A stretch of 64,000 nucleotides of DNA, from the IMG/VR virus record IMGVR_UViG_2909314774_000001. One strand, 5' to 3'. This document shows positions 4,603 through 52,230 of the stretch, one piece after another. Under the pieces are notes generated by a model. The model worked only from the letters and a program-made list of their open reading frames with translations, did no database searches and was not told the origin of the DNA. This DNA is from a virus. Lineage: Duplodnaviria > Heunggongvirae > Uroviricota > Caudoviricetes. Numbering within the stretch: position 1 is the stretch's first letter; the number at the start of each line of letters is the position of its first letter. Both the position numbers and the translations under genes were made by a program.

Positions 4603-4684
4603 GTATCTGGATAAGTAAGTACTAATTTACTATCATTGTGGCGCTGACAGGATGTTAGCGCCTACTTATTTCAAGGATGAAACA

Positions 4685-5383: not shown

Positions 5384-6173
5384 TAAAGCAATCCCTGAGC
5401 TTGGCTCTGACGTTATGCAGCAAATCTATCTCTGCGCCATAAATCGCTACCCTAATGAAGCGTGTGGCTTTCTGGTTAGAACTAATGGCGACAAATATCG
5501 CTTTATGGAAGCGCGGAATGTTTCGGAGAACCCGCAGAACACTTTTGTAATGCACGTTGACGACATTATGGCGGCAGAGGATGCGGGTGATGTTATCGCA
5601 ATCTGGCATTCACATACTGATGAATCAGCAGAAGCATCTGATGCCGATCGTGCAGGCTGCGAAGCGACGGAAGTTCCGTGGATGATTCTGGCTATTCGCA
5701 AGAATGTTGAGGGAGATGCCCCTTTCCATTTTAGCGAGATGAATGTGATCACACCTGATGGTTTCGAAATGCCATACCTGGGCAGACCGTATGTATTTGG
5801 CGTATTCGATTGCTGGATGTTGTGTCGGGACTATTTGAAGCGTGAGTTTAACGTCGAACTAAACCCGAACGCACACCTGCATATTCCATCGTGGTACACC
5901 GGCGATAACGACATTCTCGATCAGAACTACCGTAACGAGGGATTGGTGCGTCTTGCGCCCGGAACAGAGCCTCAACGTGGGGACATCTTCTTTATCCAAT
6001 ACGGGAAAATGCCTGACCACTGCGCGGTTTATATCGGCGATGGAATGATTCTTCATCACCAGATCGACCGCCTTAGTTGTCGTGCTTATTACGGCGGAAT
6101 GTATCAGAAACATACGACGCATCACTTGCGTCACAGAGACTTGCTCAAGGGAGATGAGACGTGTCTGAGTTAG
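5376..6173 (+). CDS. tail assembly protein K (MPN/JAMM plus NlpC/P60 domains, lambda gpK-like)
   Basis: ACGF...HSHT...S.ADR JAMM-like motif followed by FDCWML and HCAVYIGDG.LHH NlpC/P60-like region; first ATG at 5376 overlaps the stop of L. Confidence 0.8.
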   Translation: MGNKAIPELGSDVMQQIYLCAINRYPNEACGFLVRTNGDKYRFMEARNVSENPQNTFVMHVDDIMAAEDAGDVIAIWHSHTDESAEASDADRAGCEATEVPWMILAIRKNVEGDAPFHFSEMNVITPDGFEMPYLGRPYVFGVFDCWMLCRDYLKREFNVELNPNAHLHIPSWYTGDNDILDQNYRNEGLVRLAPGTEPQRGDIFFIQYGKMPDHCAVYIGDGMILHHQIDRLSCRAYYGGMYQKHTTHHLRHRDLLKGDETCLS

Positions 6174-6754
6174 TTCATGTGCAGCTTGGCGGCCCTATGG
6201 CCAAACATTTTGGCCGCCACTGGCATCTAAAGGTGCGCAATACAAAACAGGCTCTGGATTTAATTGAGGCCAACAAGCCTGGGTTTAAAGCATGGATGAA
6301 GCGCAATATCAAAACCTATGACCGTTACCACATCCAGATCACCAATAAACAGGGCCACAAGTGGTCTGTTGACGAAAGTGAATATCAGATGATGGGGCAG
6401 TCTGACAACATTGCCAAAATCCGCATTACACCTGTTCCGCGAGGAAGCGGTGGATCTGCTTTTGGGTGGTTTCAGACGGTAGTAGGGGCCGCTTTGTTGG
6501 TTGTATCGGCGGTAGTGATGCCTGCTTTAGCACCTATCGGTTTGTCACTGATGATGGGCGGCATATCACAAATCATATCGCCGCAAGCCACTAACGAAAG
6601 TGTGAGACAGGCAGATAACTCGAACTCTTATTATTTCGACGGCCCTCAAAATACAGAAAACCAGGGCAACCCAGTACAACTTATCTATGGCGAGGAAATT
6701 CTGGTTGGCTCACAGGTTGTGAGTTCTTCAATCACGATTGACCAGCTAATGTAA
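6161..6754 (+). CDS. tail assembly protein I (lambda gpI-like)
   Basis: 197 aa between K and J homologues, GTG start overlapping K stop, hydrophobic C-terminal half as in lambda gpI. Confidence 0.65.
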   Translation: MSELVHVQLGGPMAKHFGRHWHLKVRNTKQALDLIEANKPGFKAWMKRNIKTYDRYHIQITNKQGHKWSVDESEYQMMGQSDNIAKIRITPVPRGSGGSAFGWFQTVVGAALLVVSAVVMPALAPIGLSLMMGGISQIISPQATNESVRQADNSNSYYFDGPQNTENQGNPVQLIYGEEILVGSQVVSSSITIDQLM

Positions 6755-9700
6755 ACAAGGATTTTTTTGAACATGGAACAGTTCAAGAAGAAAAAGTTAC
6801 CGCTGTTTATTGCAGGTGCGGGTGGTAAAAAAAGCAGCAAAAGCTCTAGCCGTACACCGGTTGAAGCCGACGATACCGTAAATTCTCGTGCAATGGCCGC
6901 TATCCTCGATCTTCTTGGGGAAGGTGTAATTGGCGGCTTGGTAAATGGCGCAAGATCTATTTTTGTCGACGATCTGCCGATTGTAAATGAAGACGGTTCC
7001 TCCAACTTCAGCGGAATCACATGGGATTTTCGCGACGGTTCGCAAGACCAGACTCCAATGTCTGGCTTTGATTTCGTTGAAACGCCTAAATCCGTCAATA
7101 TCCAGTTAAAAAAAACACATTATGTAACGGTTTCAATCGATAACGATGAAGCTGATCGGGTTCGTGTCATCATGAAGTTTCCTTCTTTGCGAAGCATAGA
7201 TAAAAAAACTGGTGACACGAACGGTACAACCGTTGAGTACAAGTTCCAGATAGCAAATGGCGACTCAACATTTGTAGATGTGGTCGCAGAAGGTGAAAAA
7301 AGCGTTGGCATTAAGCTAACAGCAAAGAAGACAGGTGTTTATTACCGTAGCTATGAGCTGAAGCTGCCTAAGCCTGGACGCGCGTACAAGGTTCGTGTAG
7401 TCCGTATTACCGATGATAACAGCAGCCAGTATCTCTATAACGATACATGGGTGGACTCAATAGGTGAGATTGTAGATACACCGATGAACTACCCAAACTC
7501 TGTGCTGGTGGGTCTGAAGGTTAATTCTGAGCAGTTTGGTAGCACCATGCCATCTCGTTCGTATTTGGTACGTGGATTAAAAATTCGCGTGCCGTCAAAC
7601 TACAACGAGGCCAGCAACACTTATGATGGTGTATGGGATGGCACTTTTAAGCTGTTGTCTTCTTCAAACCCCGCGTGGATTCTCTTTGATTTGCTTACCA
7701 ATGCTCGATATGGCCTTGGTCAGTATGTGTCGGAATCTATGATTGACCTCGGCCAGCTATACCAGATCGGTCGATATTGTGACGAAGAGGTTGATGATGG
7801 CTTTGGTGGTAAAGAGAAACGCTTTGCAATCAATACGCAGATCACCAGTCGACAGGACGCATACCGATTAATTCAGGATATTGCCGGTGCATTCCGCGGT
7901 ATGGTGTTTTGGGCTGGTGGCATGGTTAACATCATGCAGGATAGCCCATCAGATCCGGTAATGATGTTTACCAACTCTAACGTCAAAGATGGATTGTTTA
8001 CCTATAAAGGTTCTGCGCGTAAAGATCGCCCATCCGTTGCGCTCGTAACCTACAACAACAAGGAGGACGGTTATAAGCAAAACATCGAGTACGTTGAAGA
8101 TCAGGACGCAATGCGCCGTTATGGTGAGCGTAAGACAGAAGTCGTAGCATTTGGCTGTACAAGCCGAGGGCAGGCTCACCGAGTTGGTTTGTGGCTTTTA
8201 TATACCGCCAGAATGGAGTCGGATGTAATTACATTTACTGCCGGCTTAGACGCGTCATTTCTGATGCCTGGTGAAACCGTTCTGATTCAGAACAAATATC
8301 GCGCAGGCAAACGTAACTCAGGTCGAATTGTGGCGTTTACCAAAAACAGCGTCACACTCGATGCGCCGGTGTCGTTAGCCAAAGGCGGCTGCTTTATTCG
8401 AATACTGAATCAGGAAGGCAAAATCGTTGAACGCGATGTTCTTGAAACTGGCGAAAATATAACAAAAGTTACGTTTTCAAAATCCCTGTCTTCGGCTGAA
8501 ACGCCTGTTTTGAACGGCGTCTGGACTATTACAGAACCAGACCTCGAACCTATGCGCGTTCGCATCGTTAACATCGCGCAGGGGGAAACGCCGGGTAGCT
8601 TTGACATCACCGCTGTTGAGAACAATCCGTCTAAATATGAGGCAATCGACAATGGTGCAACGCTGATCCCGCAGAATACGACGGTATTGGACCCAACTTA
8701 CTCCAAGCCATCTAATCTGCAAATCACTGAAGGGACTTATCTCTCAAGCCCGGGCAACCTGTCAGTAAAACTGACTGCAACATGGGAAGGGAAATCTCCA
8801 GAGTATTGGATCAGTTGGCGACGTTCTGATGAAAACAATGTATCGAACTGGCAATCGGCGCGTGTAACCGAAGAGCAATACGAAATCGTTAATGTCGCGG
8901 AGAATGGACGCTACGACTTCCAACTGTATGCGGTTTCATTCAACGGTAAAAAAACAGAAATTATCAGTACCGTTTATCAGGTGCTGGGCACAATGACACC
9001 GCCGGATGCACCAACGTCATTAACGGCCGTTGGAGACTATCGTAATGTGATACTGAATTGGGTTAATCCAGATTCGGTGGACCTTGATCACATTAATGTT
9101 TACGCATCCCAGACCAACAATCTGGATACGGCGAAACTGATCGCAGAGTCTGCAAGCACCACCTTTACACATGCTGGTCTTGGGGATAGCGAAACGTGGT
9201 ATTACTGGGTTCGAGCATCGAACAAGCGAGGTATGTTAAGTCCTCCGAACTCAAACTTGGGTACAGAGGCGACAACTCGCGATGTACTGTCGTTCCTGAC
9301 TGGCAAAATTACATCTTCCGAGCTTGGTCAGGCTCTGCTTGAGGACATCAACAGCAAAGCCTCTCAAGAAGCAGTTGACGAGTTAAATGAGCATATCAAC
9401 CAGAGCGTCGAATCTTTGGAGGGGGCGGTAAACGACGTTAAGGAAGATATAGCTGAATTAGATAAGCAGTTCAGCGATAACCTCGCGGATTTTGAAATAA
9501 AATTCAACGAGCGTAGCGATGCTTTGGAGAACGCACAAACCGAGCTTAAAGGTGAGGTTTCGGCAACGATTGACAAGGTCAATGAAGCGTTTGAAAAAAT
9601 TGATGCTACTGATGCTGCAATTGTTGAAATCGAAAACACCGTATCTGAACACGATAAAGCTCTCGCTAATACAGTCGAGGCAATAAAGGCTGCAAGAGAT

Positions 9701-48363: not shown

Positions 48364-49437
48364 ATGGCAAAAGGAAAATCCGCACTGGCACTTGCTCTGA
48401 AAAAGAAAATCGGTAGCAACGACGAAATTCAGAAAGTAACTCATTGGATTGATACAGGCTTTCCACCGTTAAACAAAGCTATTTCTGGTCGTTACGATGG
48501 CGGCTTCCCATGTGGTCGTATCGTCGAAGTATTCGGTCCTCCAAGTGCAGGGAAAACGTTCCTTGCAACAGCAGCGATGATCTCCGCTCAAAAACAAGAT
48601 GGTCTGGCGGTATTCCTCGATCATGAAAACAGTTTTGACGTTGGCCTGGCTGTAGCCAATGGCCTGAACGCAGATGAGGATGACGGTCAGTGGGTATACA
48701 AGCAGCCAGATACCTTCGAAGACTCTGTAGAGTTGATCGGCACAATACTTAAATTGGTTCGTGATGAAGAGCTTATCCCCGAATCAGCACCTATCTGTAT
48801 CGTGGCTGACTCTCTTGCGTCTATGGTTCCGAACTCCAAAGCCGAGAAGTTCGAAAAGATGGCTGAAGGCACTGCCAAAGACAAAGATCAGCTAAACATG
48901 AACGACAATACGGCACTGGCTCGTGCGACGAGTGCGAACTTCCCTACTCTGGCTTTGTGGGCACGCAAATACAACGCCTGCATCATCTTCTTGAATCAGG
49001 TTCGCACAAAAATCGGTGTAATGTTTGGCGACCCTACTACGTCGCCAGGTGGAGATTCACCGAAGTTCTACGCTTCTGTACGTATCCGTCTTGGTGCATC
49101 GGTGATGAAGGATGGTAAAGAGAAGATCGGCCAGGACGTAGGCGCAGAATGCATCAAAAACAAAGTTGCACCACCGTATGGCAAATGCACCTGGAAATTC
49201 TACTTCGATCCTACTCGTGGCCTCGACGTTATCGAATCGCTCGTCGAGTACATGCTGGAAGAAGGATACCTGCCAAAGAACGCCAGCGGGCGAGTTGAAA
49301 TTGGTGACAAGAAATACACCAAATCGCAGATCGTTGAGATGTATCGGGAGAAGCCACTGGCTGAAATCATTGCGGCTTTGCAGGCAATCGACGACCGAAG
49401 AGCAAAAGACAACCCCACCGAGTCAGTAGAAGAGTAA
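48364..49437 (+). CDS. RecA/UvsX-like recombinase
   Basis: Walker A GPPSAGKT and RecA-fold core (VFLDHENSFD, IIFLNQVR); 357 aa; followed by intrinsic terminator 49441-49468. Confidence 0.7.
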   Translation: MAKGKSALALALKKKIGSNDEIQKVTHWIDTGFPPLNKAISGRYDGGFPCGRIVEVFGPPSAGKTFLATAAMISAQKQDGLAVFLDHENSFDVGLAVANGLNADEDDGQWVYKQPDTFEDSVELIGTILKLVRDEELIPESAPICIVADSLASMVPNSKAEKFEKMAEGTAKDKDQLNMNDNTALARATSANFPTLALWARKYNACIIFLNQVRTKIGVMFGDPTTSPGGDSPKFYASVRIRLGASVMKDGKEKIGQDVGAECIKNKVAPPYGKCTWKFYFDPTRGLDVIESLVEYMLEEGYLPKNASGRVEIGDKKYTKSQIVEMYREKPLAEIIAALQAIDDRRAKDNPTESVEE

Positions 49438-49529
49438 ACACAAGGCGTCCACAGGACGCCTTGTTTATCTCTTGAAAATATATAAGTACTTACTTATTAT
49501 TTTCGCATAACAACCACATAGGAAAACAC

Positions 49530-49730
49530 ATGATCAAAATCTATCTATTGGCAGTAGCCACAGGCCTTTCAGTGGCTCTCATCTACGGTTTACTGGTTCC
49601 GTCGCTGATTTCTACCAAGAGTGATTTAGCCGTCATGTTTGGAGTTATCGTTGGTTTTGGTGCTCCTGTAATCGGTCTTATTGCTGGTCGTAAGTTTATC
49701 AACTCATTAATCAAAGCAAAGGGGAAATAA
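49530..49730 (+). CDS. small two-helix membrane protein
   Basis: 66 aa, two hydrophobic helices; ends 4 nt before the SPFH lipoprotein gene. Confidence 0.4.
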   Translation: MIKIYLLAVATGLSVALIYGLLVPSLISTKSDLAVMFGVIVGFGAPVIGLIAGRKFINSLIKAKGK

Positions 49731-49733
49731 GTA

Positions 49734-50564
49734 ATGAAGAAAGGTTTACTTGCAGTTGCTCTGGCGGCTATTTGCACAATGGGTCTTACTGGCTGCGATC
49801 GCGTGGAGCCTGGATACGTTGGCATCAAAGTAAACAAATTAGGTGAAGACAAAGGGATTGGTGAAGTGGTTGGCGTTGGTCGCCAATGGACAGGTCTTAA
49901 CACCGAACTTTACGTATTCCCGACCTTCAAACAAATGAAGACCTACGACGAGCCGTTCACATTCCAGATGAGTGACGGTACTGCTATTGGTCACAAAATT
50001 GGCGTTGCGTATCTGGTTAATCGTGACAAGGTAACGACGGTGTTCCAGACCTATCGCAAAGGCGTAGACGATATCACCGAATCAGATCTGCGTCAGAAAA
50101 TTGCCGACTCTCTAAACCGTTTGGCCAGCCGTATGACCACTGACTCATTTATCGACGGTGGTAAGGCACAATTGCTGGACAACGCACTGAAAGATATTCA
50201 GAAAGAGATGTCTCCGGTTGGTATTGAGGTACTGAGCCTGTCATGGGTTGGAAAGCCTGATTACCCAAAAACTGTCATTGAATCTATTAACGCCAAAGTA
50301 ACGGCTAACCAGCGTACTCTGCAACGTCAGCAGGAAGTTGAACAACGTAAAGCTGAGGCGAATATGCTACGTGAACAGGCTAATGGTGAAGCTGATGCTA
50401 TCCGTGCTCGTGCGCAAGCAGAAGCAGACGCCATTCGTCTACGCGGTGAAGCTCTGCGTCAAAACCCGAACGTTATGGAACTGGAAGCCATCAATAAATG
50501 GAATGGCCAGTTACCGCAGTACATGACTCAAGGGGCTAACACTCCTTTCATTACAGTGAAATAA
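49734..50564 (+). CDS. SPFH/band-7 domain lipoprotein (prohibitin/HflC-like)
   Basis: Signal peptide with lipobox LTG-C; SPFH-like core and C-terminal Ala/Glu/Arg-rich coiled coil (EADAIRARAQAEADAIRLRGEALRQ); followed by terminator 50581-50607. Confidence 0.6.
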   Translation: MKKGLLAVALAAICTMGLTGCDRVEPGYVGIKVNKLGEDKGIGEVVGVGRQWTGLNTELYVFPTFKQMKTYDEPFTFQMSDGTAIGHKIGVAYLVNRDKVTTVFQTYRKGVDDITESDLRQKIADSLNRLASRMTTDSFIDGGKAQLLDNALKDIQKEMSPVGIEVLSLSWVGKPDYPKTVIESINAKVTANQRTLQRQQEVEQRKAEANMLREQANGEADAIRARAQAEADAIRLRGEALRQNPNVMELEAINKWNGQLPQYMTQGANTPFITVK

Positions 50565-52230
50565 CTCCCCTAAAAAGTTCAGGCGTCCAGTTGGACGCCT
50601 TTTTTATCGCAATTATCTTATTAAGAAAACAATTTGTTTAAAAGGATAAGAAAACATGACAACTATTAAGAAACTCTACGATGCCGCAAACGTGGCTCTG
50701 GATGTTATTGATGATGAAGTAGCAAAAGGCTTTCCTGAACCTGATTGGGCGCATCAGCTACGAAACGCTATCGCAGAAATGACCCCACCAGATCCAACCC
50801 CCGACGAGACAGACTGGCAGCGATTCATCCGTATGTACGCTCAGGAAATAGGTCCAACGCCAACGGCAGAGCAGGCAATGCTGCTGAAATACTTCAAAGA
50901 GGCGGGAGAGGATTTACCAATTGATGACTCAGCATATTGGTTCCACTGCGCATGGCGTAAGTATGACGTGATATTCACACAAGGCATGGGAAGCAAAGAT
51001 ATGGTTGTGTGGCATCTACTCCATATAGACACAGCCGTTGACAGAGTTATTGAACAGTTTTTCCCTAAACAAGAAGATTGATCGCCTATTCATAACTAAC
51101 AAAATAAGTAAACACTAACCACAAAAGGAAAAACACATGAGAGTTTTAGTTCGAATCGTTACCAGCACTGTCTATGACGTGTTTCCGCTTTTTATGGTCA
51201 AAGCCGATGGCCTTAACGACGAAGAAACTGACGCGCTGATCCAGCGTATTCTCGTTGAATATACAGGTCATGACGCTGATTCAGTGATGGTTGATGATGA
51301 TGGTGTTTGTTGGCATAACGGCAACTGTTGGTACGTAGAAGAGACTCAACAAATCAGTGATGAAGATGCCGAACATCTTGAGCGTATTTTAAGCATCAGC
51401 ACTTTTGAGTGAGTTTACAGTAAAATTTATATAAGTTAGTATCTACCTATCATGAAGATTTTTATTGAATACTTGTTACTCATCGTTTCAATAGCTTTTG
51501 TCATCGACTGCATTTTCACTGGTGTCATTCGTAAAGTCTTTTCCCCGGTGCACGACGTAGTCATAAACGCTTTGGCTATCGTGCTCGTATTTAATTCAGC
51601 ATTTGATGTAATCAAAGAGGTGGCAGCATGAAGGCCATCCCATTCGCGCTGTTGTTCCTTTCTTCGATCGTTGTGGCCGACACCACTGTTTATCAGTGTG
51701 AAATGTCTGTAGCCGACGTTAAGAATGGCGCTCTTACCGACGTCATAAAAGCACCATATGGAGCGATGGTCGTAGACAGCGGCGACCAGTTCTATGTTGT
51801 GCGTGACGATCGAGTGTTGTCATCCCCATATCTCACAAATCGTAATGGCAAATTAACCGGCGTCGGAGAAGACCACTTCGTATACAACAAATACAAGGGC
51901 TTCTATGGCGTTCACGCTTCTCAGCAAAGCTACCTTTTCGATGACTGCAAGGAGGTTGGATAATGGCATTAACACTGGCAGGTCTGGAAATCGAGAAAAC
52001 AAGCGGCTACTGGCGTGCTAAGGGTTTCAAGCAGCCTGGCATTCTTGAGCGTCTGGAACGTGAAGATGGGTATATCGTCCACCAGCGGCGTGAATGGCGT
52101 ATGTACGATCCAGAAACAGGAAAACTGACTACAAAAGCCGGAACACTTTGGGGTCTGTTGAAGAAAATTCACTGATAACACCAACCACTGCGGTGAGTAG
52201 TCTGCTCACCGCATTCGTATCCAGCTCATT

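Follow-up and report, generated by a model that had tools for sequence, protein, structure and literature searches.

An SPFH gene pair on an E. coli phage-plasmid

The stretch of DNA analysed here, hereafter called the window, comprises 64,000 nucleotides of the virus record IMGVR_UViG_2909314774_000001, and sequence comparison identifies it as part of an Escherichia coli phage-plasmid of about 110 kb. Two adjacent genes of this window, encoding a small two-helix membrane protein of 66 residues and a lipoprotein of 276 residues with an SPFH (Band-7) domain, are the subject of this work. A sequence-only reading had placed this pair, followed by a strong terminator, at the positions given below in what it took to be a phage, and each of these elements was recovered. 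The phage or phage-plasmid setting is borne out by the matches of the region to Escherichia phages CMS-2020a, PhiR41_1 and Cyrano (95-99% identity) and to plasmid pSCU-306-2 (100% identity). The genes and their parts are the following.

49520..49525, + strand: Shine-Dalgarno sequence AGGAAA of the small gene, read from the sequence, 4 nt 5' of the ATG
49530..49730, + strand: gene of the 66-residue two-helix inner-membrane protein, the partner subunit (PHROG 1130, helices and substitution rates)
49734..50564, + strand: gene of the 276-residue SPFH/Band-7 lipoprotein, prohibitin/HflKC-like (Pfam, PHROG, AlphaFold2 and Foldseek)
49734..49796, + strand: signal peptide and lipobox (MKKGLLAVALAAICTMGLTG-C21), followed by Asp22 at position +2 (read from the sequence)
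49800..50360, + strand: SPFH (Band_7) domain, residues 23-209 (Pfam and AlphaFold2 model)
50268..50564, + strand: coiled-coil helix 179-243, short helix 245-255 and C-terminal tail with W256, G258 and P261 (DSSP on the model)

Only 3 nt separate the stop codon TAA of the small gene (49728-49730) from the ATG of the SPFH gene (49734), and the Shine-Dalgarno sequence of the latter, AGGGG, lies inside the 3' end of the former, which makes translational coupling of the two genes plausible.

The 276-residue protein has a prohibitin/HflKC-like SPFH fold and a lipobox

The 276-residue protein matched the Pfam family Band_7 (PF01145) with an E-value of 2.6e-30 and 106.2 bits against a cutoff of 23.6, residues 23-209 being aligned with positions 2-176 of the 176-position profile. 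It also matched PHROG 200 'lipoprotein' (3e-108), the profile of which has about 80 additional N-terminal positions compared to this protein, and, weakly, the Flotillin family over residues 208-266. An AlphaFold2 model built from 109 diverse homologues (predicted local distance difference test score, pLDDT, of 93.4) consists of an anchor helix, a beta-rich SPFH1 subdomain (21-95), an alpha/beta SPFH2 subdomain (97-176), a 65-residue helix (179-243), a short C-terminal helix and a tail. Among the 109 sequences, W256 is invariant and G258 and P261 are conserved in at least 90%. Comparison of the model with the PDB by Foldseek gave full-length matches to HflC/HflK (best 7vhq_G, 1.6e-14), PHB1/2 and erlin1/2 with E-values of 1e-14 to 1e-12, and a probability of 1.00 to HflC/K, PHB1/2, erlin, stomatin, flotillin and the major vault protein MVP; QmcA was found at rank 38 (1.2e-7). 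When the family profile was compared with PDB sequences, prohibitin-1 was the best match (5e-10, residues 7-243), followed by HflK and HflC. The SPFH core and coiled-coil tail read from the sequence thus stand, and the fold, whose absence from a structure prediction had been named as the ground for giving up that proposal, is present.

The N-terminus of the protein consists of MKK, a 14-residue hydrophobic core and the lipobox L-T-G-C21, with Asp22 at position +2, and agrees with the pattern of a signal peptide that ends in [LVI][ASTVI][GAS]C. The lipobox Cys is invariant in alignments A2 and A4, in agreement with the lipoprotein assignment, and Asp22 is kept in the enterobacterial SPFH members. 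SPFH relatives were collected by an all-against-all search (E<=1e-3, 2816 clusters), and a lipobox-like N-terminus was found in 111 of the 150 best cluster representatives, which were those inspected. Asp at position +2 is the residue that holds E. coli lipoproteins in the inner membrane. It is therefore probable that the 276-residue protein leaves the cytoplasm, receives a lipid at Cys21 and stays in the inner membrane.

The 66-residue protein is a conserved partner, fused to the SPFH protein in some lineages

The 66-residue protein contains two hydrophobic segments, and its AlphaFold2 model, for which the input was a shallow alignment of close homologues, shows helices 2-28 and 32-65 (pLDDT 72). 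Since its C-terminal tail is strongly basic (RKFINSLIKAKGK), both ends of the protein are predicted to be cytoplasmic (N-in/C-in) and the short loop between the helices (STKSD) periplasmic. The conserved part of this predicted loop is L-V-P-S-L-I-S-x-K-S-D (residues 22-32), and P24 and S28 are invariant in 18 diverse partner homologues. The protein matched PHROG 1130 'membrane protein' (2e-25), and the ratio of nonsynonymous to synonymous substitution rates (dN/dS) is 0.11-0.23 for the small gene, in comparison with diverged relatives, and 0.03 for the SPFH gene; these values indicate that the 66-residue open reading frame (ORF) is a real gene and that both genes are under purifying selection.

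A homologue search with the 66-residue protein returned close relatives alone (at least 73% identity), all labelled 'hypothetical', and distant partners were located by their genomic position, upstream of an SPFH gene. In the close IMG/VR viral loci, a two-helix ORF was found directly upstream of the SPFH gene in all 80 that could be assessed. A hidden Markov model (HMM) of the partner was applied to 80 loci taken from a collection with one genome per species, covering Enterobacterales, Xenorhabdus, Morganella, Sutterella, many Dyella, Cupriavidus, Leptospira, Bacteroidota, Dependentiae, Iamiaceae and others, and gave an upstream match in 64; the groups with a partner found in this way are Gamma- and Betaproteobacteria, Leptospira, Bacteroidota, Dependentiae and Actinomycetota. 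On distant viral loci the HMM detected the partner in 53 of 80, twice downstream. These figures are undercounts, as a Pseudomonas-type prophage group scored as 'none' was found on inspection to have the partner. We also searched the 480 nt upstream of the SPFH genes for the motif P-x(1,2)-[LIVFM]-[LIVFMT]-S between two hydrophobic 17-mers, and found it in 77/78, 55/78 and 59/80 loci, the majority of about 240 from several phyla, compared to 0/3635 control windows. The pair of the window belongs to the module so delimited, a hairpin with the loop motif encoded upstream of, or fused to, an SPFH lipoprotein, its own motif being LVPSLIS (residues 22-28).

In about 15 of the 150 best representatives, the hairpin is fused in frame to the N-terminus of the SPFH protein, giving proteins of 330-390 residues in which the hairpin is recognised by the partner HMM with E-values of 2e-9 to 1e-3. 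In two loci (L132 and L141) the fusion was confirmed in the DNA. The order of the fused proteins is a first transmembrane segment (TM1), the P-x-L-[IV]-S loop, TM2, a basic linker, TM3 with the lipobox and SPFH, an order that places the SPFH domain outside the cytoplasm and agrees with the positive-inside topology of the 66-residue protein. The additional N-terminal positions of PHROG 200 would fit such fused members. As a Rosetta-stone case, the fusion argues for a physical association of hairpin and SPFH protein. These results demonstrate that the 66-residue protein is a conserved, family-specific partner, paired with the SPFH gene far beyond chance. Clustering of the neighbouring ORFs of 160 loci revealed no third gene conserved across taxa; it gave lineage-specific synteny, the small partner and, in prophages, CI-like repressors.

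Several fused proteins (P0125, P0135, P0146, P0169 and others) retain the lipobox (LTAAAC-D, GTSAC-S) in an internal position after the third hydrophobic segment, and P0125 also retains an M-L-K-K start before it. The fused precursor could be cut by signal peptidase II into two subunits; translation from an internal start is a possible alternative. The partner gene lies 3' of the SPFH gene in L204 and L235, and in P0130 (344 aa) it is apparently fused at the C-terminus, which would invert the topology and may be a read-through or recoding artefact. L087 and L088, from chromosomes of Shigella flexneri and E. coli, contain around position 6001 an SPFH copy of 79% identity. No partner ORF is recognisable before it, and every frame of the upstream sequence is interrupted by many stop codons, a picture that suggests the decay of a prophage with loss of the partner.

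The pair forms a dispensable accessory cassette

The genes around the pair encode a 5'-3' exonuclease, a RecA/UvsX-like recombinase and DUF7238, and RepA is found about 2 kb further on. On the phage-plasmid, the cassette has the recombination genes on one side and the replication origin region on the other. Its borders are marked by the following features.

49440..49472, + strand: left terminator hairpin after the RecA/UvsX-like gene (AAGGCGTCC-ACA-GGACGCCTTGTTTATC), 11-bp stem, -19.0 kcal/mol, z=-5.9
49472..49500, + strand: promoter-like TTGAAA-17 nt-TATTAT, 10/12 consensus matches
50581..50608, + strand: right intrinsic terminator, second copy of the hairpin unit (AGGCGTCC-AGTT-GGACGCCTTTTTTATC), -15.1 kcal/mol, z=-5.1

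The right terminator, a hairpin (50581-50600) followed by a T-run, corresponds to the strong terminator noted earlier behind the SPFH gene. Its stem GGCGTCC/GGACGCC occurs only twice in the window, in the left terminator and at 50582-50599, and hairpin and tail together form a direct repeat (D2) with copies 1139 nt apart. In plasmid pYPE3-114k the recombinase gene, one hairpin and DUF7238 follow each other, an empty site that equals the window minus exactly one 1139-nt period. This backbone junction was found in 206 complete E. coli genomes; eight of them are empty at the site, with flanking sequences 99.5-99.7% identical, and the others carry the cassette. Plasmids with the empty site include pYPE3-114k (NZ_CP041451.1) and NZ_CP010153.1. 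The exact absence of the 1139-nt unit from these eight shows that the putative promoter, two genes and terminator form a discrete, dispensable accessory cassette. Its loss is most simply explained by recombination between the two hairpin copies; an insertion of the cassette next to a similar terminator is a possible alternative. The unit therefore has the marks of a moron or accessory element, namely a promoter-like block (a predicted promoter), flanking terminators and a presence/absence polymorphism between backbone genes. In Enterobacter relatives a different small ORF is found at the site of the cassette. One such case is the Enterobacter cloacae plasmid OW849200.1 (L251), in which the recombinase gene is followed by an ORF of about 123 aa (751-1122) and then by the next gene of the backbone, so that the site behaves as a hotspot for small accessory genes.

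In the promoter-like block, a near-palindrome (49478-49497, core TAAGTACTTA) fills the spacer and the -10 region. A 26-nt promoter block was kept in 27 distinct upstream variants of related phage-plasmids, in which its flanks are variable, and we infer that 49472..49500 acts as a promoter or operator. Near-palindromes like ATAAGTAAGTACTTACTTAT were found at 11 sites of the window with at most 4 mismatches, compared to 0.1 expected in shuffled sequences. These 20-nt sites start at 4611, 12307, 18497, 24082, 27516, 30869, 45958, 49478, 51431, 55230 and 59915, and the 10-nt core occurs 9 times with at most 1 mismatch compared to 1.45 expected. By eye, the sites are mostly intergenic and several adjoin a -10-like hexamer (TATCAT or TATTAT). 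The recurrent palindrome is a candidate for the operator or promoter motif of a regulon on the phage-plasmid.

Two further observations concern the neighbouring genes. The RecA/UvsX-like gene of the window (48364-49437) is intein-free and encodes 357 aa. A 780-aa version of the recombinase, annotated as LAGLIDADG homing endonuclease or intein-containing RecA, is found in the close relatives Cyrano, pSCU-306-2, pYPE3-114k and many others, and the last 293 of the 779 positions of PHROG 9666 match recombinase residues 65-357. On the other side of the cassette, a hydrophobic ORF of 59 aa (51452-51631, + strand) overlaps by 4 nt an ORF of 111 aa (51628-51963, + strand) with a signal-peptide-like N-terminus. 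These two ORFs, with promoter-like sites and the palindrome copy at 51431 in front of them, may form a second membrane or periplasmic accessory unit.

Distribution and origin of the module

A search of 5426 complete E. coli genomes located the pair in 282 (about 5%), at 197 places on plasmids and at 101 on chromosomes, the latter with about 76% identity. The two chromosomal or phage copies that were inspected both lie in P2-like prophages. Carrier plasmids occur in E. coli, Shigella and Yersinia pestis, with 62 records of Yersinia plasmids. A tblastn search detected homologues in 373 of 50,697 phage records, from both temperate and virulent phages. The temperate carriers include Stx2a-converting, P2-like and Burkholderia phi1026b-like phages; further carriers are phages that we take to be N4-like, FelixO1-like, LUZ24-like, phiCbK-like, crAss-like and Lak phages. 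The pair has an early-gene position in Erwinia S6, Pseudomonas DL54 and phi1026b, and lies between cI and xis/int in lambdoid prophages. In 24 prophage loci, a CI-like repressor gene is found 1-3 kb upstream on the same strand. Lysis genes adjoining the pair were found in none of the phages examined. In Dyella and Leptospira, copies of the module lie amid chromosomal genes for BlaR1/BlaI, ribonucleotide reductase, succinate dehydrogenase and EAL-domain proteins. These chromosomal settings indicate that the module is cellular in origin and old, and that it was captured by many phages.

Proposed architecture and points against it

The reading that we favour, and hold to be probable, is that the pair encodes a two-component scaffold of the prohibitin/HflKC type, located on the periplasmic face of the inner membrane, in which the hairpin is a subunit and a host inner-membrane client is held or shielded. 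By analogy with its structural relatives, the lipoprotein would oligomerise through its coiled coil and C-terminal tail, forming a ring- or dome-shaped enclosure around an area of the membrane. The long coiled coil and the conserved tail are compatible with such an assembly, which is what the structural relatives would lead one to expect. The 66-residue hairpin would be a dedicated membrane-embedded subunit with both ends in the cytoplasm, presenting its P-x-L-I-S loop to the membrane-proximal SPFH domain and providing the membrane-spanning element that is built into the N-termini of HflK/C and prohibitins themselves. The cage would enclose an inner-membrane client of the host, with FtsH-type quality control as the first candidate, and an altered turnover of membrane proteins or a more robust envelope might benefit the phage during the early phase of infection or while it is carried by the host. 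HflK/C and prohibitin cages are reported to engage FtsH or m-AAA proteases (PMC12624060; PMC2636767). FtsH itself as the client, an analogy with these systems, is possible yet doubtful. Modulation of host proteolysis and exclusion had both been suggested in the sequence-only reading and are plausible; a literature test of either was not found.

Several observations weigh against the scaffold architecture and should be set beside it. Concerning the location of the lipoprotein, Arg at position +3 may weaken the retention signal of Asp at +2. The +2 residue is Ser, Thr or Gly in many SPFH relatives, some of which could go to the outer membrane. PM0222, a phage-associated SPFH protein that is possibly related by description, was reported in outer-membrane vesicles (PMC9872710). 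Concerning the partnership, no partner is found upstream of some copies, such as those in L087/L088, L147 and L156, so that the SPFH protein may be able to function on its own. In Cyrano (6105-7139) the SPFH gene is nearly identical to that of the window (dS 0.005) whereas the small gene is diverged (dS 0.63, dN 0.145), so that any contact between hairpin and SPFH protein tolerates many substitutions. This difference between the two genes also implies a recombination breakpoint between or near them and an exchange of partner variants between lineages; in phage P88, the 67-aa partner encoded upstream is 25% and the SPFH protein 77% identical to those of the window. Concerning the client, the NCBIfam equivalog models scored far below their cutoffs on the 276-residue protein (HflC TIGR01932, 30.2 against 134.4 bits; HflK TIGR01933, 18.7 against 159.4 bits). 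The link to FtsH is therefore one of analogy and not of orthology, and E. coli already has HflKC. Lastly, the promoter motif of the cassette is common to at least 10 other sites of the window.

Alternative explanations

An unlikely but serious alternative is superinfection exclusion or anti-phage defence, in which cage and hairpin would block the entry of other phages' genomes or trigger abortive infection, and so protect the carrier cell or an already infected cell. It is compatible with the architecture proposed above and differs from it only in the client and the benefit. It fits an autonomous and dispensable cassette that, in temperate as well as virulent phages, lies among early genes or in the immunity region, often 3' of a CI-like repressor gene and co-oriented with it. 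Genes of the rexAB or sie type classically lie in such immunity regions, and an early membrane protein with a lipoprotein is a combination typical of exclusion systems like T4 Imm/Sp and T5 Llp. PHROG 1130 is moreover placed in the category 'moron, auxiliary metabolic gene and host takeover'. By contrast, neither protein had a match in PADLOC-DB 2.0, even at E=1, and we found no paper tying SPFH proteins experimentally to exclusion. The same module is also present among ordinary chromosomal genes in Dyella and Leptospira, which points to a general membrane role.

We consider it improbable that the pair acts as an envelope stabiliser, which would reinforce or repair the inner membrane during phage development or plasmid-prophage carriage and so delay a premature collapse of the proton-motive force or lysis, in the manner of PspA/flotillin-type buffering. 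This explanation, too, is compatible with the scaffold architecture. Membrane organisation and stress tolerance are general functions of SPFH proteins, and E. coli HflKC is reported to contribute to aminoglycoside and oxidative-stress tolerance (PMC10434171). The position of the pair among early genes would suit such a role, as would the homologues in virulent phages of many families, for which lysogeny control or carrier protection is irrelevant. However, the cassette is dispensable in eight natural plasmids, and it is unlinked to lysis genes, which in Cyrano are about 30 kb away.

Lysogenic conversion is very improbable. Here the triacylated lipoprotein, exposed on the surface or in vesicles, would act as a TLR1/2 agonist or as an adhesion or virulence factor, as reported for PM0222, a prophage SPFH protein found in outer-membrane vesicles the deletion of which attenuates virulence (PMC9872710). 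The occurrence of the cassette on plasmids of E. coli, Shigella and Yersinia pestis would be in line with such a role. However, PM0222 is only a possible relative of the family, Asp at +2 and the inner-membrane partner speak against surface exposure, and the family is common in environmental bacteria and virulent phages, in which effects on host immunity are irrelevant.

Even less credence is given to a degenerate SPFH-NfeD operon, in which the small protein would be a truncated NfeD working like QmcA-YbbJ or stomatin-STOPP. The sequence-only reading had noted that the pair resembles SPFH-NfeD operons in layout, with a small protein much shorter than typical NfeD. The layout, a small membrane-protein gene beside an SPFH gene, and the short length were both found as described, and the structural match to QmcA is in the same direction; kinship with NfeD was not supported by any match. 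In searches with the 18 diverse partner sequences, neither NfeD (PF01957) nor any other Pfam family was hit at E<=1, and the partner profile had no match in the PDB, YbbJ (8z5g) included. In the 66-residue protein only about 13 residues follow the second helix, which leaves no room for the OB fold that defines NfeD. NfeD-type operons pair their small protein with a cytoplasm-facing SPFH protein of the stomatin or flotillin type, such as the NfeD-linked QmcA (PMC2636767), whereas the SPFH protein studied here carries a signal for export. It is most closely related to prohibitin and HflK/C, and a survey of prokaryotic SPFH proteins in 2009 reported no NfeD partner for these subfamilies (PMC2636767). 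The identification as a truncated NfeD was rejected on the missing PF01957 and PDB matches, the lack of room for an OB fold and the export of the SPFH protein, and the degenerate-NfeD explanation is largely ruled out.

Finally, we give almost no weight to a lysis module with the 66-residue protein as class II holin or pinholin and the lipoprotein as a spanin-like component, despite the similarity of the former to class II holins in size, its two helices, its N-in/C-in topology and its basic C-terminal tail, a very weak holin-family match of one of the 18 partner homologues (E=0.18) and the long coiled coil of the latter, as the pair has no endolysin beside it in any phage examined, the small protein is fused to SPFH in many relatives, the large protein has a confident SPFH fold and not that of a spanin, and the holin/spanin assignment was rejected because the pair occurs in non-phage chromosomal contexts and because Cyrano, which also encodes lambda-like tail proteins, ParA and cobalamin functions, has its own holin, endolysin, Rz and Rz1 in a separate cassette at 26.7-28.2 kb.

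Prior knowledge and significance

SPFH genes in phages were noted by 2006 (PMC1524935), and later authors have speculated on their role (PMC13239085; PMC10269572). The genes themselves are known, common and widely annotated. In the open-access literature we found annotations and speculation and no functional study of this SPFH/hairpin family, and no description of the hairpin partner or of its fusions. What seems new is thus the conserved, sometimes fused, two-component module of cellular origin and, in this phage-plasmid, its occurrence as a cleanly bounded and naturally deletable cassette.

The structures of SPFH cages (HflKC, prohibitin, stomatin, flotillin and erlin) are understood, and what they enclose and for what purpose is still debated. 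The subfamily studied here offers a compact model, with one SPFH protein, a 66-residue partner and natural fusions. It is also among the wider-spread phage accessory genes of unassigned function, as judged from the 373 phages, the 5% or so of E. coli genomes and the Yersinia plasmids that carry it. The eight near-identical plasmids that lack the cassette form a natural knockout series, which allows direct tests of superinfection, plasmid-prophage stability, FtsH substrates and lysis timing. Should the cage target FtsH or genome entry, this would be a case of a phage using a conserved cellular scaffold; should no effect be measurable, the pair would be an ordinary and already annotated one. Tentatively, one may go further and suppose that the hairpin defines an undescribed, phylum-spanning family of obligate partners, and with it a third SPFH operon logic beside HflK+HflC and SPFH+NfeD, and that more than 10 phage lineages captured the cage, as an early or accessory pair of genes, in order to bring an inner-membrane process under their control, such as by enclosing FtsH or shutting the route of incoming DNA.

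Comparison with known systems

PM0222 (Pmorf0222), from a prophage island of Pasteurella multocida, is the only phage-associated SPFH protein with experiments that we found in the open-access literature, and it is possibly related to the family of the window. It is reported as an 'HflK/C-like' SPFH protein of 25-35 kDa present in outer-membrane vesicles and as a TLR1/2-dependent virulence factor, and its deletion lowers virulence (PMC9872710). Such a host-directed role does not explain the occurrence of the family in virulent phages and soil bacteria.

Within phage protein families, the pair of the window is a member of both PHROG 200 and PHROG 1130, and the same gene order is found in N4-like and lambdoid phages. 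Members already bear labels, as in Erwinia vB_EamP-S6 (gp044/gp045), Burkholderia phi1026b (gp49 and a lipoprotein), BcepF1 ('HflC/HflK family inner membrane lipoprotein'), Escherichia P88 ('putative SPFH domain protein') and Cyrano ('Stomatin-like integral membrane protein'). Other records read 'SPFH domain-containing protein', 'lipoprotein' or, misleadingly, 'serine protease'. None of these labels gives a function, and in none of the annotations seen is the pair treated as a unit.

The SPFH-NfeD operons (QmcA-YbbJ, 8z5g; YqiJ-YqiK; the archaeal stomatin PH1511 with the NfeD protease PH1510) likewise combine a small membrane protein with an SPFH protein and are likely co-translated, and the location of their partner is probably the part of the membrane covered by the cage, as would be that of the hairpin here. 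By contrast, the present partner lacks an NfeD/OB fold, the SPFH protein is on the opposite side of the membrane, and the conserved feature of the partner is the predicted periplasmic P-x-L-I-S loop, with fusion to SPFH in some lineages.

The prohibitins PHB1/PHB2 and the p-prohibitins (SPFH4) are the nearest solved relatives by profile (prohibitin-1). They are similar in length (about 270-300 aa), their C-terminal region is like the tail of the 276-residue protein, and their SPFH domain is on the non-cytoplasmic side of the membrane (intermembrane space or periplasm), as predicted here. They differ in having an N-terminal transmembrane or hydrophobic anchor instead of a lipobox and in being without a small hairpin partner. 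For SPFH4, no partner gene was reported and the topology was called unknown (Hinderhofer et al. 2009, PMC2636767). Nor did that survey find a partner for the small subfamilies. The family may belong to SPFH4 or to one of the small SPFH subfamilies 6-12.

HflK/HflC of E. coli (SPFH3) share with the 276-residue protein the order of anchor, SPFH1, SPFH2, long coiled coil and C-terminal tail, and the predicted periplasmic side of the inner membrane. They are the best Foldseek matches over about 280-300 columns, at about 16-18% identity, and the similarity in sequence is weak (HflC model 2e-7, HflK model 1e-3). Filing the 276-residue protein as HflK/C was rejected on the equivalog scores given above. 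HflK/HflC is a hetero-oligomer of two SPFH paralogues, encoded by adjacent genes and each anchored by an N-terminal transmembrane helix, whereas the cassette described here has one SPFH gene, the product of which carries a lipobox as its anchor and is accompanied by the 66-residue hairpin.

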